A stretch of 64,000 bases of DNA, from NCBI GenBank assembly GCA_951406725.2, contig OX597824.1, positions 23,250,001 through 23,314,000 of the forward strand, written 5' to 3'. The DNA is from Octopus vulgaris. Its lineage: Eukaryota. Below the pieces are notes generated by a model that worked only from the letters and a program-made list of their open reading frames with translations, ran no database searches and had not been told where the DNA came from. The translations under genes were made by a program, and so were the position numbers. Shown here in pieces: positions 8,952 through 60,855 of this stretch (positions are counted from its first letter, which is position 1; every line of letters begins with the position of its first letter).

Positions 8952-9019
<68 letters not shown>

Positions 9020-10376
9020 ATAGAAGTCTGAAGGATAGAAGTCAGGTGGTAGTAGCCAACGGGGCCACCTCCATTAGCACACAAATAGTGAGCGGTGTTC
9101 CGCAGGGCACTGTTCTGGGACCACTACTGTTCATAATGGCCCTCTCAGACATGCCCTCAGCCACGCAGAGAGCCACGATCACAAGTTATGCAGATGATAC
9201 AAAAGTCTCACAGGCAATACAGAACCCTGAGGACACTAAACACCTGCAATGTAAGCTGGACGAAATATACAAGTGGGCTGAAAAGAATAGCATGCAGTTC
9301 AATGCTGGAAAGTTTCAAGCTTTATACTATCAGCATGCAAAACTGAATGCAATACCCAATGAATACACTGGACCCGGAGGGATTGCAATCCCAGAGGCAC
9401 AATCAGTGCGTGACCTGGGTATTCACATGAGTGATGACGCGACCTTTCATGTACATGTTGCTAAACTGACAATGAAATGTAGACGGCTGGCTGGATGGAT
9501 TCTTAGAACCTTTAGAACAAGAGAACAAGAAACCATGATGGTCCTCTGGAAGACACTTGTCCTAAGCCACTTTGACTATTGCTCTCAGCTATGGTCACCA
9601 TCCAGTGTCAAGTTGATCACAGAACTTGAGGCGATCCAACGAAGCTACACAAAGAAGATAGCCTCTATGCAGAATGTAAGCTACTGGGAAAGACTCAAGA
9701 GATTAAAATTATATTCCCTGGAGCGTAGGCGGGAAAGATATGCCATAATATACATCTGGAAGATCCTGGAGGGAAGTGTCCTGAACTTTGGCATCGAGAG
9801 TTACGCAAATGCCAGAACTGGGCGCCACTGCGTGGTGCCTAGGACTCCAAATCTGCCATCAAGATGTAGGACAAGATTCTGTGATAGCCTGGGCTTCCGA
9901 GGCCCACAGCTCTTCAATATCCTCCCGAAGAACCTGAGAGACCTGCATGGGGTGGATACAGATGTCTTTAAAATGAAGCTGGATCTCTTCCTGTCAGGTG
10001 TCCCAGATGAACCAACTTCACGGCAGGAGGGGCAGATGAGGGCAGCTGCATCGAACTCTCTCATGCACCAAATAGCAGTTGCTAGAAAGCCTCCATGAAG
10101 TGAAACCAAGTAGCAACACCAAATGGCGGTGCCCCAGCATGGCCACAGCTCATAAGCTGAAACTAGAATCAATCAATCAATCAATCATATATATATATAT
10201 ACATATATATACATATATACGACGGGCTTCTTTCAGTTTCCATCTACCAAATCCACTCACAAGGCTTTGGTCGGCCCGAGGCTATAGTAGAAAACACTTG
10301 CCCAAGGTGCCACGCAGTGGGACTGAACCCGGAACCATGTGGTTGGTAAGCAAGCTACTTACCACACAGCCACTCC
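8735..10376 (-). mobile_element. SINE family A split by a LINE inserted in its central (TA)n tract
   Basis: 3' half at 8735-8955 and 5' half at ~10190-10376 are colinear with intact copies such as 16158-16565. Confidence 0.85.
9017..10186 (+). mobile_element. 5'-truncated CR1/L2-group LINE (RT domain C-terminal half, 3' UTR, (AATC)n tail)
   Basis: Open ORF 9046-10098 with SGVPQGTVLGPLLF, YADDTK, DLGI, SHFDYCSQLWSP, LYSLERRRER and FKMKLDLFL motifs, ending in aatcaatcaatcaatc. No stop or frameshift in the retained part. Confidence 0.92.
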
Positions 10377-19764: not shown

Positions 19765-22700
19765 TTAGTATTCTTCAATCTCATCTCCCGTTTCAGCTGT
19801 GTCAATACCGACTTCTTCATAATCTTTCTCCAACGCAGCCAAATCTTCGCGCGCTTCTGTGAACTCTCCTTCCTCCATACCTTCACCAACATACCAATGA
19901 ACAAAAGCTCGCTTGGCATACATTAAGTCAAATTTATAATTTAGACGGGCCCAAGCTTCAGCAATAGCTGTCGTATTGTTCACCATACACACGGCCCGTT
20001 GAACCTCAGCCATGTCTCCCCCAGGGATAACAGTTGGGCGTTGGGAATTGATACCAACTTTAAACCCTGTTGGGCACCAATCCACAAACTGAATTTCTTT
20101 TTCTTTTTAATTGCTGCAATAGCAGCGTTAACATCTTTCGAGACCACATCGCCTCGGTACAACAGACAACAAGCCATGTACTTCCCACGGCGAGGGTCAC
20201 ATTTAACCATCTGATTACCGGTTTCAAAGCACGCGTTTGTTATTTCAGAAACAAGCAACTGCTCGTGGTACGCTTTCTCAACCGATATTATTGGTGCATA
20301 CGAAATCAATGGGAAATGAATACGTGGATAAGGTACAAGGTTGGTTTGAAACTCGGTTAAATCGACATTAAGGGACCCATCAAACCTTAGAGAAGCAGTA
20401 ATAGAGCTCACTACCTGAGCAATCGGACGATTAAGGTTGATGTATCTTGGATACCCAACATCTAAATGCTTTTTACAGATATCATAAATTGCTTCATTGT
20501 CGACCATGAAAGCGCAGTCACAATGCTCTAGAGTGGTATGAGTGGTTAAGACGGAATTGTACGGTTCTACTACAGCTGTAGAAATTCGTGGTGCCGGATA
20601 GACTGAAAATTGAAGCTTTGTCTTTTTACCAAAGTCAACACTCAGGCGCTCCATTAGCAGAGACGTAAAACCAGAACCGGTGCCGCCACCGAAACTATGA
20701 AAAATCAAGAAGCCCTGGAGGCCAGAGCATTGTTCAGTTACTTTATGAATTTGGTCACAGACCGAATCAATGATTTCCTTGCCAACGGTATAGTGACCCC
20801 TGGCGTAATTGTTGGCTGCATCCTCTTTACCACTGATGAGTTGGTTCGGGTGAAATAACTGGCTGTATTTTCCAACGCGTATTTCATCTGGAAAATAAGA
20901 TTTTGAGCAATAATATATCAAACTGGCAATATAAAAATTAAAAGATTTTTCTTATATTAGAGGAGTATGAAATGTAGAGATTCTCAGACAGTTACTTGCT
21001 TTATCAGTTCAACAAAGTACTTCCATGTACGACATTCCTCAGAATATACTGCTAACAATACTTACATTCAAATACCGGATACATAAACACTTACTATTCC
21101 ACTCACATTTAACCGATTTTATAGTCGACACATTTTACTGCCGTGATCAGTTCTGTTGTACAACAGAATTTTGAAATATTGTCCAATATTCAAGAAAACG
21201 GCGTTCGGAAATATAGCAGTAAAAAAGGAACCACTGCTTCATCACAAATCTTCGAGTTTTTTTTCCAACACAGAAAAACATAGAAGATTGATTAACCAGA
21301 ACATTAAATGCGCGACAGGGCAATTCCTTGTTTAATTTATTTTTGTAAATACAATTTTGAAACGTTTATACTTACCGATAACTGAGGGCTCCAAATCGAC
21401 GAATATGGCTCTGGGGACACGTTTCCCAGAGCCTATCTCATGAAAGAACGTACTAGACGAATCATTAACACCGGAAGATTCAAATGATACTTGACCATTT
21501 TGTTGGATTCCATGTTCAAGGCAATAGAGTTCCCAACAAGCGTTACCTATTTGGACGCCTGCTTGTCCTATGTGAACGCTGATACATTCTCTCTGAAAAA
21601 AAAGTTGTATAATAGAATTATTTTACAAGCTAGAGAAATCGGACAAAAGTGGGAGTTGAGCCCAAAAGGGAGCATCGCCGTGGTGTACTGCCTGTTAGAA
21701 ATAGCTGTCAAATTCCTTCCGATCATACCCTATTGATTAACAAAATGTTTATATCACGCGAACTCTAAATTTGGAAAATATAGAAATGGTAACTGAAGCG
21801 CATTTTTAACACAAATTTTCGCCAACAAGGTTTCGTGAGGTTTCAAGAGCCATGCAGAGCTACATAAGAACCTTTAAAATGGTCTTTTTGGAGAAATTAA
21901 AATAACTGATATGAGTTGTCAGAACTTAACCATTATACCACAGGAGATAATAGCACAATATTTATAAATTCAAATCTAATTAAGCACACAAATATTTTAA
22001 AACAACCTTCATGTTTAATGTAAGTATTCCGTTCTACTTCATTTCAACACCACTTTACATTGAGACAGTTTCTTCCAGTATAGCTGTGGGTCAATCTAGT
22101 AAACGGAAATGGATTTAGCGGTGGCCATGTGGACGCCCGTCAAATAAACTGTAAGGGAAAGTGCACAATGACAATATTTTTTTTAAATGTGCGCTCCCTT
22201 ACGAAAACTATATCCATTAAGCAAATGACCTTCCCTAAATTCTTTAAAAAATAATCTAACATTTTAGACAATTATTGCAGTTCTGAGTATATAAAACAAA
22301 TTTGGCTGGAGCCAAATGAGTAAGCCAAAATAAGATAAATCTGCCTCTTCAGTTCTCCAGAATCACATTTGAAAACAGACTCGTACATCAATATTCATCG
22401 TTAGACACCAGAAAGACCAAAAACTAAAAGAAATTAAATACCTCGGTCAAATGAAAGGCGATCAAAGGAAAACAATACATATGAAAATAACGAAACTCGA
22501 CTAAAGATAAAATATTCTCTACAGTTTCTTTACGATCTGCTGGGGTATCTATTCCTGAGAGATTTACACACGAGGTAGTTAAAGTGGGATTGAAATTAAT
22601 CACTCCTTTTACACTATTTTAGGCATTTTTTCAAACTTGAAAATTATCAAATTAGCGTGTGAAAAAAATTTACTTGTAATCCAGCAGAGAAAAGAATATA

Positions 22701-32014: not shown

Positions 32015-32049
32015 GTTTAACGTTTCGAGCGGAGCTCTTCGTCGGAAAC
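32015..32049 (-). ncRNA. Minimal type-I hammerhead ribozyme-like motif in a ~200-bp insert (31918-32118) between (TA)n tracts
   Basis: Minus strand GUUU-CCGACGA-A-GAGC(UCC)GCUC-GAAA-CG-UU-AAAC: stem I GUUU/AAAC, core with U4C, stem II, palindromic AACGUU in place of stem III. Confidence 0.55.
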
Positions 32050-32140: not shown

Positions 32141-32783
32141 TAACAATTAAAAAAGAGGGTGTCTAATAGACACCAACATGCCGAAATAGCAGTCGAAATT
32201 CTGACTATAAAAACCACGTTAAGTGTTCATATCGTACCATGAGATAAGACAGAGGGACAAAATATACAAGCAAAAATTATTGAATAATTCAAGATCCAGG
32301 ATTTCTGGTTTTGCTTTAAATAAGCTTTACCGTCATCAATTGAATATATCAAGGGTACATAAATACTGATATATATATGCAGAACAAACGATATACTTAC
32401 ATATACGAACGTCCATACATAAATACATATGTACGTATGCACGCGGCCAGTTAAATTGCCCGCCAAAGCACCCCATAAGCACGATATGGTTAAAATAAAC
32501 ATCGCAGTGAATATAATAACGAATTATATAAATTTATATATGAGGATAATATCGATATTTAAGTATCAATATTATCAAGTGGCCAGCATGGGAAAAATAC
32601 CGTCCAAAGGTAATAATTTTTAACAATTAAAAATGAGGGTGTCTAATAGACACCAACATGCCGAAATAGCAGTCGAAATTCTGTCTTATTTCATGGTACG
32701 ATATGAACACTTAACGTGGTTTTTATAGTCAGAATTGATAATATTGATACTTAAATATCGATATTATCCTCATATATAAAATT
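32141..32783. mobile_element. Rearranged direct-plus-inverted repeat insert in (TA)n, Penelope pseudo-LTR-like
   Basis: 32141-32203 is repeated directly at 32621-32683. 32201-32252 is inverted at 32681-32732. ~32530-32578 is inverted at ~32735-32783. Confidence 0.55.
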
Positions 32784-40126: not shown

Positions 40127-43100
40127 TTAATATTCTTCTATCTCATCTTCCGTTTCAGCTGAATCAATACCAACTTCTTCATAATCTTTCTCCAACGCAG
40201 CCAAATCTTCGCGCGCTTCCGAAAACTCACCTTCCTCCATACCTTCACCAACATACCAATGAACAAAAGCTCGCTTGGCATACATTAAGTCAAATTTACG
40301 ATTCAGACGGGCCCAAGCGTCAGCAATAGCTGTCGTATTGCTCAGCGAGCACACGGCCCGTTGGACCTTGGCCATATCTCCTCCAGGGACAACGGTTGGG
40401 GATTGGGAATTGATACCAACTTTAAACCCTGTTGGGCACCAATCCACAAACTTGATGGATTTTTTATTTTTAATTGCTGCAATAGCAACGTTAACATCTT
40501 TCGAGACCACATCGCCTCGGAACAACATACAACAAGCCATGTACTTCCCACGGTGAGGGTCACATTTAACCATCTGATTACCGGTTTCAAAGCACGCGTT
40601 TGTTATTTCAGAAACATTTAACTGCTCGTGGTACGCTTTCTCAACCGATATTATTGGTGCATACGAAATCAATGGGAAATGAATACGCGGATAAGGTACC
40701 AGGTTGGTTTGAAACTCGGTTAAATCAACATTAAGGGACCCATCAAACCTTAGAGAAGCAGTAATAGAGCTCACTACCTGAGCAATCGGACGATTAAGGT
40801 TGATGTATCTTGGATACCCAACATCTAAATGCCTTTTACAGATATCATAAATTGCTTCATTGTCGACCATGAAAGCGCAGTCACAATGCTCTAGAGTGGT
40901 ATGAGTGGTTAAGACGGAATTGTACGGTTCTACTACAGCTGTAGAAATTCGTGGTGCCGGATAGACTGAAAATTGAAGCTTTGTCTTTTTACCAAAGTCA
41001 ACACTCAGGCGCTCCATTAGCAGAGACGTAAATCCAGAACCGGTGCCGCCACCGAAACTATGAAAAATCAAGAAGCCCTGGAGGCCAGAGCATTGTTCAG
41101 TTACTTTATGAATTTGGTCACAGACCGAATCAATGATTTCCTTGCCAACGGTATAGTGACCCCTGGCGTAATTGTTGGCTGCATCCTCTTTACCACTGAT
41201 GAGTTGGTTCGGGTGAAATAACTGGCTGTATTTTCCAACGCGTATTTCATCTGGAAAATAAGATTTTGAGCAATAATATATCAAACTGGCAATATAAAAA
41301 TTAAAAGAGTTTTCTTATATTAGAGGAGTATGAAATGTAGAGATTCTCAGACAGTTACTTGCTTATCAGTTCAACAAAATACTTCCATGTACGACATTCC
41401 TCAGAATATACTGCTAACAATACTTACATTCAAATACCGGATACATAAACATTCACTATTCCTCTCACATTTAACCGATTTTATAATCGACACATTTTAC
41501 TGCTGTGATCAGTTCTGTTGTACAACAGAATTTTGAAATATTGTCCAATATTCGAGAAAACGGCGTTCGGAAATATAGCAGTAAAAAAGGAACCACTGCT
41601 TCATCACAAATCTTCGAGTTTTTTTTCCAACAGAAAAACATAGAAGATTGACTAACCAGAACATTAAATGCGCGACAGGGCAATTCCTTAATTTATTTTT
41701 GTAAATACAATTTTGAAACGTTTATACTTACCGATAACTGAGGGCTCCAAATCTACGAATATGGCTCTGGGGACACGTTTCCCAGAGCCTATCTCATGAA
41801 AGAACGTACTAGACGAATCATTAACACCGGAAGATTCAAATGATACTTGACCATTTTGTTGGATTCCATGTTCAAGGCAATAGAGCTCCCAACAAGCGTT
41901 ACCTATTTGGACGCCTGCTTGTCCTATGTGAACGCTGATACATTCTCTCTGAAAAAAAAAAAAAGTTGTATAATAGAATTATTTTAAAAGCTAGAGAAAT
42001 CGGACAAAAGTGGGAGTTGAGCCCAAAAGGGAGCATTGCCGTGGTGTACTGCCTGTTAGAAATAGCAGTCAAATTCCTTCCGATCATACCCTATTGATTA
42101 ACAAAATGTTTATATCACGCGAACTCTAAATTTGGAAAAGATAGAAATGGTAACTGAAACGCATTTTTAACACAAATTTTCGCCAACAAGGTTTCGTGAG
42201 GTTTCAACAAGAGCCATGCAGAGCTACATAAGAACCTTTAAAATGTTTTGGAGAAATGAAAATAACTGCAATAAGTTGTCTGAGAGCTAAACCATTATAC
42301 CACAAGAGATAATAGCACAAGATTTATAAATTCAAATCTAATTAAGCACACAAATATTTTAAAACAACCTTCATGTTTAATGTAAGTATTCCGTTCTACT
42401 TCATTTCAACACCACTTTACATCGAGACAGTTTCTTCCAGTATAGCTGTGGGTCAATCTAGTAAACGGAAATGGATTTAGCGGTGGCCATGTGGACGCCC
42501 GTCAAATAAACTGTAAGGGAAAGTGCACAATGACAATATTTTTTAAAATGTGCGCTCCCTTACGAAAACTATATCAGTTAAGCAAATGACCTTCCCTAAA
42601 TTCTTTAAAAAATAATCTAACACTTTAGACAATTATTGCAGTTCTGAGTATATAAAACAAATTTAGCTGGAGCCAAATGCGTAAACCAAAATAAGATAAA
42701 TCTGCCTCTTCAGTTCTCCAGAATCACATTCGAAAACAGACTCGTACATCAATATTTATCGTTAGACACCAGAAAGATCAAAAACTAAAAGAAATTAAAT
42801 ATCTCGGTCAAATGAAAGGCGATCAAAGGAAAACGATACACATGAAAATAAAACTCGACTAAAGCTAAAATATTCTCCACAGTTTCTTTACGATCTGCTG
42901 GGGTAGCTCTTCCCGAGAGATTTATACACGAAGCAGTTAAAGTAGGATTGAAATTAGTCACTCCTTTTACACTATTTTAGACATTTTTTGAAACCCGACG
43001 TGTTAACAGTAAAAGCTATACGGCAGACACGGAAAACATACCCAGAAAATATTGCAGTTTCACAATAGAGACTATATTAAGTAAATGAAAATATTAGTAA

Positions 43101-47609: not shown

Positions 47610-49150
47610 AGCCAGTGTGCACATAGGCAAACCGCATCAGGTCGTGTAGGTTCGTATCTAGATAGAGTATTCTACAGGTCAGTTGATAATGATAGCATAG
47701 GTGATCCATATTTCAAAATGTTCAGCTACACGTAATCCAAATTTGTCATCTACACGGTCGACCTAGATAAGCGTCGTAGACTGGAAGCCGGTTACTGCAA
47801 AAATTTTCCAACCAAATTTTCGAAAAAACCTTTTGAAAATTTTCCTCAAAAATCTTTGAAAATTTTTCCTAAACATTTTGGAAAACCCCGTGTATCTCCC
47901 GCAAACTTCGGATATTTCCGGTAAATTCCGGCAATCTCCAGCAATTTCCGGTGATCTCGGACAATTTGCGGCAAACTCCGGTAATCTACGGCAATTTCCG
48001 GCAATATCTGGTTATTTCCGGCAATCTCCGGCAATTTCCGATAATTTCCGGCTATCTCCAGCAATGTCTGGTAATTAACGACAATTTCCGGCAATCTTCG
48101 GCAATCTCCGGCAATCTTTTTTTCAAAAATTTTATAAAATTTTGCAAAAAAATTTACAATTTTCCTTAAAAATTTTTTTTGAAAATTTTCCTCAAAAATA
48201 TTTGAAAATTTTCCCAAAATTCTTTGAAAATTTTCCTAAAAAACTTTTGGAAATTCTCAAAAATTTTTGAAAATTTTCCCCCAAAATTTTTGAAAATTTT
48301 AAAAAAATTTTTGAAAATTTTTCTCAAAAATTTTTGAAAATTTTACCCCAAAATTTTTGAAAAAAGTTTTTGAAAATTTTTGAAAATATCCCTCAAAAAC
48401 TTTTGAAAAATTTTTTGAAAATTAGTAAATCTGCCACAAAAGATGAGTTGTCCTTTCTAGTTTAGATTAGAATCGATTAAGTTGAAGAACCTAAAGGCGA
48501 TAGAGAAAATTGAACAGAGGGAGACTGAGAAACCTACAAGAGGCGCTTAGGAAAGGAATCGCATCAATTCTTTAATGCAAAGCATGAAGTCTGCATTGTC
48601 AGATCTAGATGCCTGCTGTGAGACGCGAGAGGAGAAAGCTGAGAGATGGAACCGAGTGATGGAGGTGCAACGTGGCAACAAAACCACCGTTCGGTTTTTG
48701 GTGGACCATAATTGGTGCATGCTAGTCGAGCGACTCTCAGCAAGGGAAACAAAGTGTTGCAAGAAGCCCCGGAAATACGGGAATCAATAATTAACCGCAC
48801 GGGATATGAAGCGTCTGATTTTGATGGTTTACCCTACGAGCTTTACTTTTGCTTGCAAAACTTGCTCGGAAACCTCTTGGCATCAGGTAACAGAACGGGA
48901 AATTTTCTAGTTCTGTGGGCCGAAGAGCGGTAACGTTGCTGAGAAAGGGTTCAAACAGGATGAACCACATAGATAATTTCTGGCCCATAACATTGCTAAA
49001 TGCAGATGTCAAAGTTTCGGCCAGTGTTGGAAAATAGGTTGGTTGTCACTTGTCAATGGTTTCATTGGTGATGCGCAAATATTCACCATCTATCCACGAC
49101 ATCCACCATGTCATTGTGATACATCATAGAGAGGTGGAATAAAGAGAGTA
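47610..49150 (+). mobile_element. Duplicate of the Tx1/L1 ORF2 relic, interrupted by a satellite-like insert
   Basis: Colinear with 26030-27000. Confidence 0.75.
47800..48422. repeat. Satellite-like insert: TTTTGAAAA(A)TTTT repeats flanking a 10-bp (TCCGGCAATY)n array
   Basis: Directly visible. Absent from unit 1; the first ~65 bp are present at 57045-57112. Confidence 0.85.
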
Positions 49151-49813: not shown

Positions 49814-52800
49814 CAAAATGCCCAGTAGAACCAACTGTCTTGCCATAAATTATAGTCATATAGATATTCCTCTAACTCGTTTCAGTCATGTGACTGGGGT
49901 CATGCTGGAGCACCGCCTTTAGTCGAGCAAATCGACCCCAGGACTTATTCTTTGTAAGCCTTGTACTTATTCTATCAGTCTACGTTACGGGGACGTAAAC
50001 ACACCAGCATCGGTTGTCAAGTGATGTTGGGGGAGACAAACAGACACAAACATACTTATATGTAAATATACATATATACGACGGGCTTCTTTCAGTTTCC
50101 GTCTACCAAATCCACTCACAAGGCTTTGGTCGCCCCGAGGCTATAGTAGAAGACTCTTACCCAAGGTGCCACGCAGTGGGACTGAACCCGGTAGTAGAAG
50201 ACTCTTGCCCAAGGTGCCCCGCAGTGGGACTGAACCCGGAACCATGTGGTTCGTACGCAAGCTACTTACCATACAGTCACTCAGGATAGGCAATAGGCGC
50301 AAAATTAAGAAAACACGGGCACGACAATAACAAATATCATATACAGACACACGTGTATAGGTATATTGGCACACAGTTATATGCGTGGGCTAAACCTGCT
50401 TCCTAACCATAGGGCTTTGGGTTCAGTCCAATTAAGTAGCACCTTGGGCAAGTACCTTCTACTATAGTCTCTGGCCGACCAACGCCTCGTGTGGATTTGG
50501 TGGAGGGAAACGTAAAGAAGCCTGTCGTGTGTGTCACTACCGCTTGACAACCGGTGGTGTGTGTACATAGCCTAGCGGTTAGGCAAAAAGAGTTCGATAG
50601 AATAAGTACCAGGTTTAAAAAAGGGAAATTAGTCCTGGGATAAAGTCATTCGACTGAAACTCTTCAAGCCGGTGCCCCAGCATGGCCACAGTCTAATACA
50701 GCTGACAAGGATATTTATGTCATTTACACACTGAAAGTTTCAAAAAAAAAAAAAAAAAATGCTTAATGGCTAAAGCTTAGTGGCGTTTCGAAACTACGTC
50801 CTCAGTTAGGCGTAGGAGTGGCTGTGTGGTTAAGTAGCTTGCTTACCAACCACATGGTTCCGGGTTCAGTCCACTGCGTGGCACTTTGGGCAAGTGTCTA
50901 TAGCTTCAGGCTGACCAAAGCATTGGGAGTAGATTTGGTAGACGGAACCTGAAAGAAGCCCGTAGTATGTGTGTGTCCCAACATCACTTGAGAACCGATG
51001 CGTCCCCGTAACTTTGCGGTTCGGCAAAAAGAGACCAATAGAATAAGTACTAGGCTTACAAAGAACAAGTCTTGGGGTCGATTTGCTCGACTAAAGGCGG
51101 TGCTCCAGTATGGCCACAGTCAAATGACAAGTAAAAGGAGAGTAAAGAGTTTAAATTCTGCCAAGGTCAACTTCGCTTTTCATCTTCTGGCGGTCGGTAA
51201 AGTAAGTAGCACTTGAGCATTTCTGTCGATGTAATCGCCAAGCCTCCTAAAAGAATTTCAGACCTGGTGCCCATAGTAATAAAATTAAAGGAGGCACGCT
51301 AGCAGAATTGTTACCGCACCGGAAAAATGCCTAACGGAATGTTGTTAGTTTTTACGCTCTAAGCTTAAAACACTGCTCATCCGTTCAGGGTTGATAAAAT
51401 ATGTACAAGAAGAGCTACCGCGGTCGATATAATCGACTAACCACTCTCCCCAGATTTGCTGAGCCTTACAGCAAAAAATAGTTACCGTTGACTAACAAAA
51501 TGTGTCCCAGTATCTGGATACTTGATTGATTCCAAATACGAAGAGAAAATCTATTCAAGAATTAGAGAAATATGTCAATTGATTGTGATAAGCTTTTATT
51601 ATTTCAAAGAAATTCGAAAAAAAAATGTTATTTCGAAAAGTAATTCTTTATGTTTAGTATGCAACACAAACAGGAAAACAACGCAATTTTGATATTTCAA
51701 AAGCTAATTCGTTAGGTTAAATTAATATTGGAAGACTACACACGTGTGTATATGTATATATAAGACCCACCATTTCTAATAAAATTTAAGATTTAGTATT
51801 CTTCAATCTCATCTCCCGTTTCAGCTGTGTCAATACCGACTTCTTCATAATCTTTCTCCAACGCAGCCAAATCTTCGCGCGCTTCTGTGAACTCTCCTTC
51901 CTCCATACCTTCACCAACATACCAATGAACAAAAGCTCGCTTGGCATACATTAAGTCAAATTTAAAATTTAGACGGGCCCAAGCTTCAGCAATAGCTGTC
52001 GTATTGTTCAGCATACATACGGCCCGTTGAACCTCAGCCATGTCTCCCCCAGGGATAACAGTTGGGCGTTGGGAATTGATACCAACTTTAAACCCTGTTG
52101 GGCACCAATCCACAAACTGAATTTGTTTTATCTTTTTAATTGCTGCAATAGCAGCGTTAACATCTTTCGAGACCACATCGCCTCGGTACAACAGACAACA
52201 AGCCATGTACTTCCCACGGCGAGGGTCACATTTAACCATCTGATTACCGGTTTCAAAGCACGCGTTTGTTATTTCAGAAACAAGCAACTGCTCGTGGTAC
52301 GCTTTCTCAACCGATATTATTGGTGCATACGAAATCAATGGGAAATGAATACGTGGATAAGGTACAAGGTTGGTTTGAAACTCGGTTAAATCGGCATTAA
52401 TGGACCCATGAAACCTTAGAGAAGCAGTAATAGAGCTCACTACCTGAGCAATCGGACGATTAAGGTTGATGTATCTTGGATACCCAACATCTAAATGCAT
52501 TTTACAGATATCATAATTGCTTCATTGTCGACCATGAAAGCGCAGTCACAATGATCTAGAGTGGTATGAGTGGTTAAGACGGAATTGTACGGTTCTACTA
52601 CAGCTGTATAAATTCGTGGTGCCGGATAGACTGAAAATTGAAGCTTTGTCTTTTTACCAAAGTCAACACTCAGGCGCTCCATTAGCAGAGACGTAAAACC
52701 AGAACCGGTGCCGCCACCGAAACTATGAAAAATCAAGAAGCCCTGGAGGCCAGAGCATTGTTCTGTTACTTTATGAATTTGGTCACAGACCGAATCAATG

Positions 52801-55800
52801 ATTTCCTTGCCAACGGTATAGTGACCCCTGGCGTAATTGTTGGCTGCATCCTCTTTACCACTGATGAGTTGGTTCGGGTGAAATAACTGGCTGTATTTTC
52901 CAACGCGTATTTCATCTGGAAAATAAGATTTTGAGCAATAATATATCAAACTGGCAATATAAAAATTAAAAGAGTTTTCTTATATTAGAGGAGTATGAAA
53001 TGTAGAGATTCTCAGACAGTTACTTGCTTTATCAGTTCAACAAAATACTTCCATGTACGACATTCCTCAGAATATACTGCTAACAATACTTACATTCAAA
53101 TACCGGATACATAAACATTCACTATTCCTCTCACATTTAACCGATTTTATAATCGACACATTTTACTGCTGTGATCAGTTCTGTTGTACAACAGAATTTT
53201 GAAATATTGTCCAATATTCAAGAAAACGGCGTTCGGAAATATAGCAGTAAAAAAGGAACCACTGCTTCATCACAAATCTTCGAGTTTTTTTTCCAACACA
53301 GAAAAACATAGAAGATTGACTAACCAGAACATTAAATGCGCGACAGGGCAATTCCTTAATTTATTTTTGTAAATACAATTTTGAAACGTTTATACTTACC
53401 GATAACTGAGGGCTCTAAATCTACGAATATGGCTCTGGGGACACGTTTCCCAGAGCCTATCTCATGAAAGAACGTGCTAGACGAATCATTAACACCGGAA
53501 GATTCAAATGATACTTGACCATTTTGTTGGATTCCATGTTCAAGGCAATAGAGCTCCCAACAGGCGTTACCTATTTGGACGCCTGCTTGTCCTATGTGAA
53601 CGCTGATACATTCTCTCTGAAAAGAAAAAAAAGTTGTATAATAGAATTATTTTACAAGCTAGAGAAATCGGACAAAAGTGGGAGTTGAACCCAAAAGGGA
53701 GCATCGCCGTGGTGTACTGCCTGTTAGAAATAGCTGTCAAATTCCTTCCGATCATACCCTATTGATTAACAAAATGTTTATATCACGCGAACTCTAAATT
53801 TGGAAAAGATAGAAATGGTAACTGAAACGCATTTTTAACACAAATTTTCGCCAACAAGAGTCATGCAGAGCTACATAAGAACCTTTAAAATGGTATTTTT
53901 GGAGAAATGAAAATAACTGCAATAAGTTGTCTGAGAGCTAAACCATTATACCACAAGAGATAATAGCACAAGATTTATAAATTCAAATCTAATTAAGCAC
54001 ACAAATATTTTAAAACAACCTTCATGTTTAATGTAAGTATTCCGTTCTACTTCATTTCAACACCACTTTACATTGAGACAGTTTCTTCCAGTATAGCTGT
54101 GGGTCAATCTAGTAAACGGAAATGGATTTAGCGGTGGCCATGTGGACGCCCGTCAAATAAACTGTAAGGGAAAGTGCACGATGACAATATTTTTTTTAAT
54201 GTGCGCTCCCTTACGAAAACTATATCAGTTAAGTAAATGGCCTTCCATAAATTCTTTAAAAAAATAATCTAACACTTTAGACAATTATTGCAGTTCTGAG
54301 TATATAAAACAAATTTGGCTGGAGCCAAATGAGTAAACCAAAATAAGATAAATCTGCCTCTTCAGTTCTCCAGAATCACATTCGAAAACAGACTCGTACA
54401 TCAATATTTATCGTTAGACACCAGAAAGATCAAAAACTAAAAGAAATTAAATACCTCGGTCAAATGAAAGGCGATCAAAGGAAAACGATACACATGAAAA
54501 TGAAACTCGACTAAAGCTAAAATATTCTCCACAGTTTCTTTACGATCTGCTGGGGTAGTTCTTCCCGAGAGATTTATACACGAAGCAGTTAAAGTAGGAT
54601 TGAAATTAGTCACTCCTTTTACACTATTTAAGACATTTTTTGAAACCCGACGTGTTAACAGTAAAAGCTATACGGCAGACACGGAAAACATACCCAGAAA
54701 ATATTGCAGTTTCACGATAGAGACTATATTAAATAAATGAAAATATTAGTAAATTCTGACAAACGATTTAAATTCAAAATTGTATTTAATATTTTTTTAT
54801 ATAGTGCTAAATACAATTTTGTGAAGATTAGATGGTTAATGTAGACCGAATTGAAAGTAAATACAGTTTCGTAATACAAAAATTGTTAATGGGTTAATTC
54901 TAAGCAAGGGATGCGAATAGAGGGGTAATGTTTCTAATGAAGAGGGATTGTGTAAGTCTATATTCCTTCGTTGTAAATTTTGAAGAGATTTTCTCTAAGT
55001 TTTCACGGTCGCACTTATGTAGCTCTAGACAAAAATCACTGATTTTTAAAAATTCTTAACGACATACTGACTAAAAATCAAAGGTTTTTTTTTCTAAATG
55101 CTTTTAGAGTTTTCTATACGTTTGTTTCTCATGTAATGTCGTATGTTGTTACATGGCAACTTTTGGCTGTCACATGTTGCTTTCAAATCTAGATGAAAAT
55201 TCTGTTTTAAAACTTCAATATTTGTCGCTATTATGCAAGAGAGTCGAAAGTCCCAAACTTTTTCAGAAGGAAAAAATAAAGTTTCACCATTCCACAGCAA
55301 AACCGTTGTACTACACTTTGACAATTTTCGATATCTTGCCATCTGAAGCAACTAGAGATCCTGTTATTTCGACCAAAAGAACCGGCTATTGCAAATAAAA
55401 ATAAATACTGAATAAAACGTATTTGGCTAAATTTAGACGCACGAAAGTTTAACAGAATAGCAACCATATAAACATTGCGAAAGCAAGAAAAGAATTTCAC
55501 TAATAAATATGCACAAAATATTTTGTAAATGTGAATAAAGGTTATTATATTCAAAACTGGATTTCCCATAAATTTGGAGAGGCAGACGAGAAATAAACCG
55601 TAGCAAATTTACCATTGTTGTCGCGCTGTTTCTGTACCGTTCAAAGTGGAGTCAATAAACAAGACGGTGGTTTTGCTCTTGGCCTTGCTACAAATAGTAA
55701 TATTTTTTTACTCTCCTCCTACTCTTACTCTTATACTACTCCGTGTTAGCCAATGGTGATCGTATGTTCGAAGACAGTCTCAAACTGAAGGGTGTGATTT

Positions 55801-57112
55801 TGAGGGGAGTAATACATTAATTTTGATTTAATTTTCTTCTTTTCAATTTAACACCCCTATAATTACAAAAGGCTAAACTTAACGGAATGGTTCACATATT
55901 GAAATAATTTCATCAACTAATAAACCGAAAGAACAGAGAGGTGGGAGTTGAAGTTTTTGCATACGGAGCATCAAAAATTTAAATCTAAAAAGGAACAACG
56001 AAGATACTATTTGAACGCGATAATTTTTCAAATGAAATTGGATTATTTTGCTTTTATTCTTCAGTGGTGAAAGGTATGTTTAGAAGATTTAATTAAATTC
56101 ACAAACTGAGAATGATGTTTTAGTTTCAATCTCCATCTGAAGTCACTTCTGTTTATTTAATGCCCTGAAGTAACTTCAGTTTAATGAGTCCGCTGTAGTC
56201 ACGAAAAAAGAATGAATATTCAAGCCTCCTATTTTTCTTCCTTCTACAAAATTAAATTGGGACTGTTATATATAATTTCTATCTTTTATTAGTTATGATT
56301 TTTTAAAAATTGATCACCAAATACAGAAGCAAGCATAATCATACAACTCCGGACACATAATGTCTTTTAATATTTTCCTACATCCCTTCACATCTAGTCC
56401 GAAATCCCAGGAGAGTTGATACAACTTTTGTCCGTCTGAATCATTGTTTGTTCCTTTTCGAACCCCGCCTGGATCATTAGGGCCGGTTTCCCGGTTTTCT
56501 TGGAGTATAGGTTCCCCACCTTGGACGGGACCGGTCCGTCGCAGGTGAGCTGCAAGATGCAGGAGGAAAGAGTGAGAGAAAGTTGTGGTGAAAGAGTCAG
56601 CAGAAGATCGCCATTAACTTTTGCCGGAGCCGTGTGGAGCTTAAGTGTTTCGCTCATAAACACACACATCGCCCGGTCTGAGATTCGATCACGCGATCCC
56701 TCGACCGCGAGTCCGCTGCTCTAACCACTAGACCATGTGCCTTCACGTCTGAATCATTAAGGCATAATTATCCACAAAGTACAGAAGATCATTTAAAATA
56801 TTTGGAATTCACATATTTATTTAAAAAAATTATTACAAGATGCATTTATTTTATAATAATTTTGATCATAGGCAAACCGCATCAGGTCGTCTAGGTTCGT
56901 ATCTAGATAGAGTATTCTATAGGTCAGTTGATAATGATAGCATAGGTGATCCATATTTCAAAATGTTCAGCCACACGTAATACAAATTTGTCATCTACAC
57001 GGTCGACCTAGATAAGCGTCGTAGTCTGGAAGCGGGTTACTGCTAAAATTTTCCACCAAAATTTTCGAAAAAACCTTTTGAAAATTTTTGAAAAGGTTTT
57101 TGAAAATTTTCC
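49814..57112. repeat. Segmental duplication unit 3
   Basis: Colinear with 17839-26215; shares the intron-1 deletion and the TTTTGAAAA insert start with unit 2. Confidence 0.92.
51793..55615 (-). pseudogene. TUBA: Alpha-tubulin copy 3, probable pseudogene (-1 frameshift at 52515-52516 plus T7-loop substitutions)
   Basis: Exons 55613-55615, 53400-53616 and 51793-52915 (1123 nt). atcataattgc versus atcataaattgc in copies 1 and 2. [10 protein letters not shown] versus [10 protein letters not shown], and PRIYTA versus PRISTA. Confidence 0.75.
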
Positions 57113-57147
57113 TCTAGATTAAACTATTTTAATCTTAATCTATTTTA

Positions 57148-57245
<98 letters not shown>

Positions 57246-57296
57246 ATATATGTATATATATTTATATACTTTATTTAAAGCAGCAGAAAATTCAAC

Positions 57297-57343
57297 AAAA
57301 CCTGTTACTCTGAGTTTCACGTTCCCGTTCGTTGGACAGTTTT
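57297..57343 (-). ncRNA. Degenerate type-I hammerhead-like motif, left palindrome arm
   Basis: Reverse complement of 57751-57797. Confidence 0.45.
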
Positions 57344-57750
57344 TGCTAGAATGGAACCGATATGTCAATTCTATCCAGACTAGTATAAACGCTACACCTT
57401 TAAAAATGGACTTGTTTGATTGGTCCTTTACAAATAACGGTCAATTTTCGAGCGATAAACAAAAATGAGCTCAATATATATATATATATATATATAAATT
57501 ATAAAATTCGAGCAAAAAACCTTACTTCGAATCTTTGGTTAAAATACAAAAGATTCGATGTAAGGTTTTTTCCTCGAATTTTATAATTTTTTTAATATAT
57601 ATATATATATATTTTTTTTTTGAGTTCATTTTTGTTTATCGCTTGAAAATTGACCGTTATTTGTAAAGGACCAATCAAACAAGTCCATTTTTAAAGGTGT
57701 AGCGTTTATACTAGTCTGGATAGAATTGACATATCGGTTCCATTCTAGCA

Positions 57751-57797
57751 AAAACTGTCCAACGAACGGGAACGTGAAACTCAGAGTAACAGGTTTT
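57751..57797 (+). ncRNA. Degenerate type-I hammerhead-like motif, right palindrome arm
   Basis: AAAACUGU-CCAACGA-ACG(GGAA)CGU-GAAAC-UCAGA-GUA-ACAGGUUUU: stems I, II and III can all form, but the core deviates from CUGANGA at two positions. Confidence 0.45.
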
Positions 57798-57824
57798 GTT
57801 GAATTTTCTGCTGCTTTAAATAAA

Positions 57825-57880
<56 letters not shown>

Positions 57881-57947
57881 TTAGAGACAATGAAAAACTT
57901 AAGCCAATACATAAGATTATTTAATTTATATTATTTAAATATATAAC

Positions 57948-58020
57948 AAAATTACTACGATCGTTTCATGGCTGTTAATTTCTTTAAATTTTCAAGTCAC
58001 AGTCATTCATCAGGTGGTTT
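57948..58020 (-). ncRNA. Minimal type-I hammerhead ribozyme-like motif
   Basis: AAACCAC-CUGAUGA-AUGACUGU...ACAGCCAU-GAAAC-GAUC-GUA-GUAAUUU: perfect core, palindromic loop III, stem I with two mismatches. Confidence 0.62.
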
Positions 58021-58205
58021 AAATATCTAAAATATAATCAATATTTTAAAGATATAAATAATATATATAATATAATATAATAATTTTACTTATAATAAAC
58101 TCTATTATCAAATATGATTATATCGAAATCGACTATAATGTTAAATATTAACTTTAATTTATATATATATTTATATATATATATATCTATCTATCTATCT
58201 ATCTA

Positions 58206-58256
<51 letters not shown>

Positions 58257-58441
58257 GAAATATTAAAATTACTAAGTCTCTCTAAAAGAGATCACGGCAG
58301 CGTTCCTGGAAAATAATAGTTATCGCCATACTAATATGGCATTCTTATGAAAATAAGAATAAGATGGCCTCATGGAGCTAATAAGCGGACAGCTTTATTC
58401 TTATTTTCATAAGAATGCCATATTAGTATGGCGATAATATT

Positions 58442-58487
<46 letters not shown>

Positions 58488-58523
58488 GAGAGAGAGAGAG
58501 AGAGAGAGATAGATAGATAGATA

Positions 58524-58559
<36 letters not shown>

Positions 58560-58618
58560 TAGATTAAGATTAAAATAGTTTAATCTAGACTTATGCGGAT
58601 ATACTAGCAACGGTTTAC

Positions 58619-58678
<60 letters not shown>

Positions 58679-59804: not shown

Positions 59805-60203
59805 CTAGCAGTATCGCCCGGCGTTGCTCGGGTTTGTAAGGGAAATAACTATATAACCATTTTTAGAGAGTTATAGCCAAAAAATAGCAAAAAAAATGCA
59901 TTAAAAATGGAAGAAAAATGATGGTAAATTTTTTTTTAAATCGTTGACTCATCGTAGACATTTTTAGAAAGTTACTTCCCTTATATAATAGCGAAAAAAT
60001 GCATTGAAATGGAAAAAAATGATGGTAAATTTTTTTTTAAATCGTAGACTTATCGTAGACGCGCGCTAATATCCAGAAGGGCTCGATATGAATCACGACT
60101 ATAAGATACCCGGTTTTGGTTAAACTGCACCGCAAAATGTGGGAGTAGTTAGGAATCTAAATCGTAGGAGACAGACACACAACTTCACTCTTATATATAA
60201 AGA
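59805..60203 (-). mobile_element. Non-autonomous Helitron (399 bp)
   Basis: Minus strand A|TCTTTATATATAAG ... CCCGAGCAACGCCGGG hairpin-CGATACTG-CTAG|T: 5' TC, subterminal hairpin, 3' CTAG, A/T target, no TSD. Internal ~115-bp tandem repeat. Confidence 0.85.
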
Positions 60204-60570: not shown

Positions 60571-60793
60571 ACTGGAACCAGTGTGAAGCGGCTGACCTCC
60601 CTTGTTCGAAGGTTATAATGGACACAGTTTGTGTGTCAAATAGCTATCTTAAGGCGATGGCCTCATGGAGCTAATCAGCGACAGCTTTTAGTCTTGTATC
60701 TATAAGACTGCCATATTAATATGGCGATAACAATTAATTTCCAGTAACGCTGCCGTAATCTCTTTAAGAGAGACTTAGTAATTTTAATATTTC

Positions 60794-60855
<62 letters not shown>

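Follow-up and report, generated by a model that had tools for sequence, protein, structure and literature searches.

The closest described relatives of the repeats studied here are Penelope-like elements (PLEs) of the Hydra clade, which are defined by a reverse transcriptase (RT) with a C-terminal GIY-YIG domain and by RWK, DKT, CxCX5C, CxxC and CxH motifs (PMC8557442). The members of this clade, including Hydra-1_Obim and Hydra-2_Amil, encode both domains in a single ORF, target (TA)n, carry close to their 3' end a type I hammerhead that reads in the sense of the ORF, form inverted 5'-truncated copies and often have a tail at one end only; their length, generally below 3 kb, is a tendency and not a strict rule, and Penelope-13_HM is listed with a hammerhead on each strand (PMC8557442). 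Minimal hammerheads of metazoan PLEs have a short stem I, a palindromic stem III and a U3-A8 variant, occur in opposite-strand pairs 100-700 bp apart and mostly in lone truncated copies, need a second same-sense copy and cleave poorly (PMC4209133). Non-LTR retrozymes of molluscs are head-to-tail units with a type I hammerhead and without an ORF, the units of mussels measuring 350-390 bp, and are characterised by self-cleaving circular transcripts (PMC7229834; 10.64898/2026.07.22.740005). In Poseidon of Anolis, a representative of another clade, the tail lies between two internal RT start sites and both strands of the AT-rich target DNA are cut; head-to-head joins are not addressed in the sections of that study available to us (PMC11167929).

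The locus described here occupies positions 57113..58589 of a 64,000-nt stretch of Octopus vulgaris contig OX597824.1 (positions 23,250,001 to 23,314,000), to which we refer as the window. Results of our analysis indicate, with a probability of roughly 0.85, that truncated 3' ends from two Penelope-like families, which code for protein and show Hydra-clade motifs, and from a non-coding hammerhead repeat of 363 nt have piled up in it, each ending in a TA tract, and that they are enclosed by a unique inverted pair of 37 bp, the likely product of a single DNA-repair event. The inverted repeats and the hammerhead motifs are supplied by these three high-copy families, each of which ends in (TA)n. 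With its known Penelope architecture and decayed ribozymes, the locus is ordinary for the genome of this octopus; only the 37-bp mirrored flank, absent elsewhere in the genome, is unusual here and was probably left behind by DNA repair. For PLEs, the literature already describes truncated copies joined head to head, hammerheads on opposite strands, the targeting of TA and tails at one end only. What the locus adds to these known kinds are two Hydra-type families and one retrozyme-like unit, present as decayed fragments, together with one repair-like junction. Among the papers listed by our literature searches, none deals with these octopus families; Repbase, Dfam or the supplements of 10.64898/2026.07.22.740005 may list such units. 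The features of the locus are the following (position in the window, strand, feature, and basis of the assignment in brackets).

57046..57114, no strand: end of tubulin unit 3, equal to the first ~70 bp of the high-copy AAAATTTT satellite, cut off here (paralog comparison, contig depth)
57113..57149, plus: outer 37-bp arm, left copy, unique, its first 2 nt common to the satellite (genome search; junction in run X2 contig)
57151..57268, no strand: (TA)19(TCTA)14 tract (sequence)
57270..57545, minus: 3' end of family 1 (Hydra-type PLE), 5'-truncated, short end (no tail), internal TA tract (homology to family copies)
57297..57344, minus: minimal hammerhead motif of type I with the core CCAACGA (G5A in addition to U4C, which most of family 1 has) (core motif, pairing, homology)
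57546..57824, plus: 3' end of family 1 in the opposite orientation, short end (no tail) (homology to family copies)
57750..57797, plus: mirror copy of the family-1 hammerhead motif, with G5A too (core motif, pairing, homology)
57826..57876, no strand: (TA)25 tract (sequence)
57875..58158, minus: lone 3' end of family 2 (Hydra-type PLE), 5'-truncated, short end, two internal deletions of ~25 bp (homology to family copies)
57954..58016, minus: type I hammerhead, canonical core CUGAUGA, long stem II, palindromic stem III, stem I of 2 bp (core motif, pairing, homology)
58160..58253, no strand: (TA)n(TCTA)5(TA)23 tract (sequence)
58254..58362, minus: arm of family 3 (363-nt non-coding unit) with 60-nt tail (long end), hammerhead part absent (homology to family copies)
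58363..58437, plus: arm of family 3, short end (homology to family copies)
58438..58552, no strand: (TTA)n(TA)14(GA)13(TAGA)4(TA)13 tract (sequence)
58553..58589, minus: outer 37-bp arm, right copy (genome search)
58590..58621, no strand: unique flank that separates the right arm from the (TA)28 tract after it (1 genome match at up to 3 mismatches)

The palindromes and hammerhead motifs recognised in the initial annotation are present where it placed them, with corrections to detail. All four of its inverted-repeat pairs exist, but the ~205-bp and ~40-bp pairs are one family-1 arm split by an internal TA tract that other copies also have. The palindromes are not nested as had been proposed: the small hairpin (58254-58437) adjoins the central one, the two stand side by side, and the 37-bp pair alone encloses both. 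The proposal of a Penelope-like origin, with inverted truncated copies bearing minimal hammerheads and homing into (TA)n, is supported by the sequence evidence, and the suggested piling up of elements beside each other is seen here as well as at loci L012 and L019. The description of the repeats as several non-autonomous families fits family 3, which is non-coding in its top copies, but not the other two, which are fragments of autonomous RT and GIY-YIG elements; the link of the repeats to RT-GIY-YIG ORFs, which had been suggested as a check, was found for families 1 and 2.

The arms of the central hairpin are identical at 203 of 205 positions in their outer part and differ by three further substitutions in the inner part, and the 561-nt hairpin has a predicted folding energy of -428.5 kcal/mol (z -46.9). 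Our search with the family-1 arm gave 1974 first-look candidates in the genome, the best-scoring copies (40 scored) being 95-99% identical. The arms cannot be read as a MITE or foldback transposon, since most of the copies extend inward as part of a longer element and the length of the inverted partner, where there is one, varies. At locus L063 the inverted piece encodes the end of a GIY-YIG domain, and in 14 of the 20 loci fetched with that piece the arm lies ~1.2 kb downstream of the GIY-YIG end in the same sense. Locus L133 comprises a partial pLTR, a 70-nt tail, a frameshifted ORF and then the family-1 3' end, which gives a unit of ~3.5 kb, as compared with generally less than 3 kb in the Hydra clade. 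The family-1 ORF contains RWK (RRLRWKAFFF) and DKT (SDKTRN) motifs, CxCX5C and CxxC...CxH; the linker reads CNCKNESSC in some copies and CNF in others, and in CNLC...E...N...CRH the CxxC and CxH motifs surround the conserved E and N. ORF pieces of further Hydra-like families are inserted beside family-1 copies at loci L088 (187-702, minus strand) and L101 (1-510, minus strand).

Family 2 gave 1858 first-look candidates in the genome (40 scored). At loci L058 and L059 its repeat occurs twice in direct orientation, flanking an RT-EN ORF that runs in the sense of the hammerhead and contains DKT (SDKTRN), CACRDKTKC (CxCX5C), CYLC...CRH and KWK (RIKWKAYY) where Hydra has RWK. Over 212 aa, the RTs of the two families share 37% identity, and with the ORFs of both families RT clusters were found at 0.95 in Atlas; searches of Pfam and PDB sequences with these ORFs gave nothing meaningful, the ORF copies being frameshifted and their domains recognised by motif. 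Compared by eye, the motifs place families 1 and 2 among the Hydra-clade PLEs as their probable members, with which they share the single-ORF architecture, the DKT, CxCX5C, CxxC and CxH motifs, the sense hammerhead near the 3' end, the TA target, the inverted truncated copy and the one-sided tail. Family 1 differs from the clade by U4C in its hammerhead, a 3-bp stem II and a 1.1-kb 3' UTR, and family 2 by its KWK motif. Tails are 60-74 nt long here and 30-40 nt in the clade, and both families differ from the protein and hammerhead printed for Hydra-1_Obim, again in a comparison by eye.

Searches with family 3 gave 730 and 1778 first-look candidates (40 scored each). Among 23 distinct loci of the 1778 candidates (25 loci fetched), its unit of 363 nt is joined seamlessly head to tail, with no ORF and up to ~3 units per locus; 18 of these loci contain fold-backs, and the 30-nt flanks are TA tracts or unrelated DNA, with a shared continuation in none. 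Its non-autonomy was judged on the top copies. The unit carries a type I hammerhead of the U3-A8 type, a part that the copy in the window lacks. By its short head-to-tail unit, the lack of an ORF and one type I hammerhead per unit, family 3 appears to be a non-LTR retrozyme unit, yet it differs from those described in its U3-A8 core and in that most of the sampled copies are fold-backs with Penelope-type ends. A second family-3 fold-back fragment is present at window positions 60656-60854, 2 kb downstream. Families 1 and 2 and the retrozyme-like unit are young, and the locus is valuable as the material that leads to them.

The short and long 3' ends are 70 nt apart in family 1, 74 nt in family 2 and 60 nt in family 3, and fold-backs almost always combine one end of each kind. 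This pairing was found by script in 10 of 12 family-1 fold-backs, and in 12/12 after inspection of loci L132 and L085 (one further row was dropped, as it paired two separate insertions), in 17 of 18 family-3 fold-backs, and in 9 of 11 fold-backs of family 2, the other two being ambiguous. The family-3 hairpin of the window follows the rule; in the family-1 hairpin both ends are short, which is the case in none of the 12 other family-1 pairs. A mechanism that would produce such pairs can be proposed. The RT-GIY-YIG protein would nick (TA)n on both strands, as suggested by published Penelope biochemistry, and a tandem or circular RNA would be reverse-transcribed from two fixed positions within it, possibly with an RT dimer priming from both sites on opposite strands. 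Two truncated cDNAs, once joined head to head, would then form a hairpin in which one end is short, the other is long (tailed) and each strand has a hammerhead, and the TA flanks left by each insertion could become targets for the next. The 363-nt unit probably makes use of the Penelope machinery. The pairing of short and long ends makes both the formation of inverted Penelope copies and the transport of retrozymes testable by counting and in vitro.

The outer arms (57113-57149 and 58553-58589) are identical over 37 bp and belong to none of these families. In the 2.8 Gb of the genome (227 contigs) the arm has two copies only, both in the window, whether it is searched exactly, with up to 3 mismatches or as a 20-mer, and a DNA search and 126 fetched loci gave no further one, which removes it from the repeat families among which it had been counted. 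On the left, the arm meets the end of tubulin unit 3. The homology of units 3 and 2, which had been said to stop exactly at 57112, does stop here, but the BLAST match ends at 57110 and satellite contigs (depth above 12,000 in short-read runs X1 and X3) match up to 57114, so flank and arm have 2 nt in common. Six paralogs of the unit end lie on the same contig, three without satellite and three with at least 600 bp of it; the arm is absent from all six, and only in unit 3 does the satellite stop after ~70 bp. Among the matches listed, the ~900 bp that lie upstream of the first two units do not reappear beyond the junction.

The most likely origin of the 37-bp pair is a duplication by template switching or fold-back that accompanied the truncation of tubulin unit 3 within the satellite; the end of the arm coincides exactly with the unit-3 break, which points to the junction event as the source of the duplicate. 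The copied DNA may have come from an island in the vicinity. Short unique inverted insertions copied from nearby DNA are well known at repair junctions formed by MMBIR/FoSTeS or polymerase-theta end joining. The pair resembles such templated insertions in being a short, unique, inverted copy of nearby DNA with a 2-nt microhomology at a rearrangement junction. The proposed coincidence of a palindrome with a duplication breakpoint is real, but it is a single one, concerning 1 of 7 unit-end copies and 1 of the 10 listed homology boundaries in the array.

Of the other explanations, the one that survives best, possible in our opinion and still doubtful, is that a Penelope hairpin itself caused the break: a short-ended family-1 copy with its TA/TCTA tract and the 37-bp flank would have been duplicated by fold-back repair into a concentric palindrome, and families 2 and 3 would have been inserted later into the right TA tract. 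It covers the two short ends of the central hairpin (0 of 12 other family-1 pairs and 1 of 18 family-3 pairs have them), the presence of G5A in each of the arms (against 4 of 43 other copies), the low difference between the arms (2/205 vs. 64/1526 pooled) and the mirrored unique flank that ends at the unit-3 break; moreover, the few substitutions that separate families 2 and 3 of the window from their nearest copies make their later insertion possible. However, the arms of ordinary fold-backs also have private variants in common, so these do not discriminate as a test for secondary duplication; even the family-3 arms of the window share one variant found in 0 of 81 other copies. Furthermore, the arms of locus L006 are equally alike (2/184), the TCTA/TAGA tracts are mirrored around family 3 too and are common in the window, and the inner junction resembles that of ordinary family copies.

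A wider scenario can be put forward only tentatively: a Penelope insertion would have seeded the fold-back repair that mirrored the unique flank and cut off the tubulin unit, making the common octopus hairpins a source of rearrangements, the pairing of short and long ends would record twin priming by one RT dimer, and retrozymes would be carried by Hydra elements. The mirrored unique flank provides one example of a rearrangement that may be linked to Penelope.

It is rather improbable that one 37-bp copy, most likely the right one, is an assembly or haplotype artefact, the rest of the locus being real. One 80-nt contig of run X2, which may derive from the source animal, spans the left junction with no differences and crosses the arm without a branch; it contains the arm with the left flank only, the two arms are identical, and the right junction was not seen in contigs of any of the four runs (X1, X2, X3 and X5). 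Yet contigs can show the presence and not the absence of a junction, and of runs X1 and X2, 76 and 80 in 100, respectively, were covered. In addition, the tracts inside the two 37-bp arms differ, unlike in a chimeric-read product, and the central arms differ at five positions.

No better placed is the possibility that a rare DNA transposon, inserted at TA, had the 37-bp arms as its terminal inverted repeats, or that a read-through Penelope RNA brought them along as its 3' flank. Their ends can be read as TA on either side of a 33-bp repeat, and each arm follows a Penelope end on its downstream side, in the sense direction of that end. The mismatch-tolerant, 20-mer and 126-locus searches described above argue against it, as do the six paralogs, none of which offers an empty site, and the fact that the outer end of the arm lies outside (TA)n, unlike the Penelope ends here. 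We rejected the identification of the outer arms as a DNA transposon or MITE, since neither dispersed paired-end copies nor an empty site were found.

The hammerhead of family 1 consists of stem I CTGT/ACAG, the core CCGAYGA, a stem II of 3 bp capped by a GNRA loop, GAAA and a palindromic stem III, with cleavage after GUA. In 43 other copies, G5 is kept in 39 and C4 in 40, G5A occurring in 4; both arms of the window have G5A. Of the three common variable sites of the motif, two are tolerated (N7 and the N of the loop) and one, changed in 14 of 44 copies, disrupts the closing pair of stem II. The hammerhead of coral Hydra-2_aMil has stems I and III identical to those of family 1 and a stem II that is different yet paired, which constitutes covariation across families; its absence had been named in the initial annotation as a point that would speak against hammerheads. 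The variant core of the central hammerheads kept them from being picked up by a simple CTGANGA...GAAA scan.

The claim of a hammerhead fold in each central arm is thus borne out for the motifs, which are present on both strands, but not for their integrity, as both are damaged by G5A. Similarly, the third hammerhead, put at 57948-58020 and called better, has the canonical core, whereas one of the two family-2 deletions takes out most of the 3' strand of stem I and leaves 2 bp. The core and stems that an active hammerhead requires are therefore intact in none of the three. G5 is essential for the hammerhead. The U4C change is described as lowering hammerhead activity (PMC3088659). The three families have in common with the minimal PLE hammerheads outlined at the beginning the short stem I, the palindromic stem III, the U3-A8 variant, the opposite-strand pairing and the lone truncated state, and the window copies differ from them by this further damage. 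Rfam gave no hammerhead match at the gathering score, and none of the six single hammerhead folds clearly beats its shuffles (z from -1.4 to +1.2); the ribozyme call is drawn from core motifs, pairing and homology, not from folding energy. Taken together, the motifs suggest that the hammerheads of the window are probably dead relics.

In a transcript of either strand the hammerhead is located in the second arm, so that its complement would already have been made and the hammerhead would be trapped in a duplex. The surrounding 164 kb contain 11 inverted-repeat clusters, some of them chance SINE pairs, so hairpins are common in this region. That the cluster is a functional unit giving self-cleaving RNA from both strands, or long dsRNA or small RNAs acting on the tubulin array, is very unlikely: a read-through transcript is indeed predicted to form a ~270-bp duplex, but both central motifs carry G5A and sit behind their own complement, the third has its stem I cut, family 3 is without its ribozyme here, the hairpin contains no tubulin sequence and it is one of many in the region.

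Further minimal hammerheads with a palindromic stem III, one with a C4 core, occur on the minus strand at window position 32045 and in the L078 region (window coordinate 94657), near the fold-back 32197-32736, and probably belong to another Penelope family; the hand-made descriptor used was too strict to recover the damaged copies of the window and gives no census.

The tubulin array comprises three units in the window, with none further in 40 kb upstream or 60 kb downstream. The copies, on the minus strand at 19765-20951, 40127-41314 and 51793-52979, match Pfam Tubulin and Tubulin_C, and we take them to be of the alpha type; in the first and third, the reading frame shifts within the long exon, which points to pseudogenes or assembly indels. 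On the same contig, near 24.22 Mb and 26.67 Mb (loci L140, L141, L143 and L145), two more pairs of the unit end are found, ~11 kb apart within each pair, one copy without and one with satellite, and the array probably recurs there. The satellite is composite at 47817-48421, with 23-bp AAAATTTT units around 10-bp ATTTCCGGCA units in very high copy by contig depth; it is of variable length and in some units is inserted into a decayed repeat.

Among other elements of the window, the one at 59805-60200 starts with ACTAGC, has an early GC-rich hairpin and resembles a non-autonomous Helitron, and positions 9019-10098 encode a 359-aa reverse transcriptase fragment that we take, by its motifs, to be of the LINE type.
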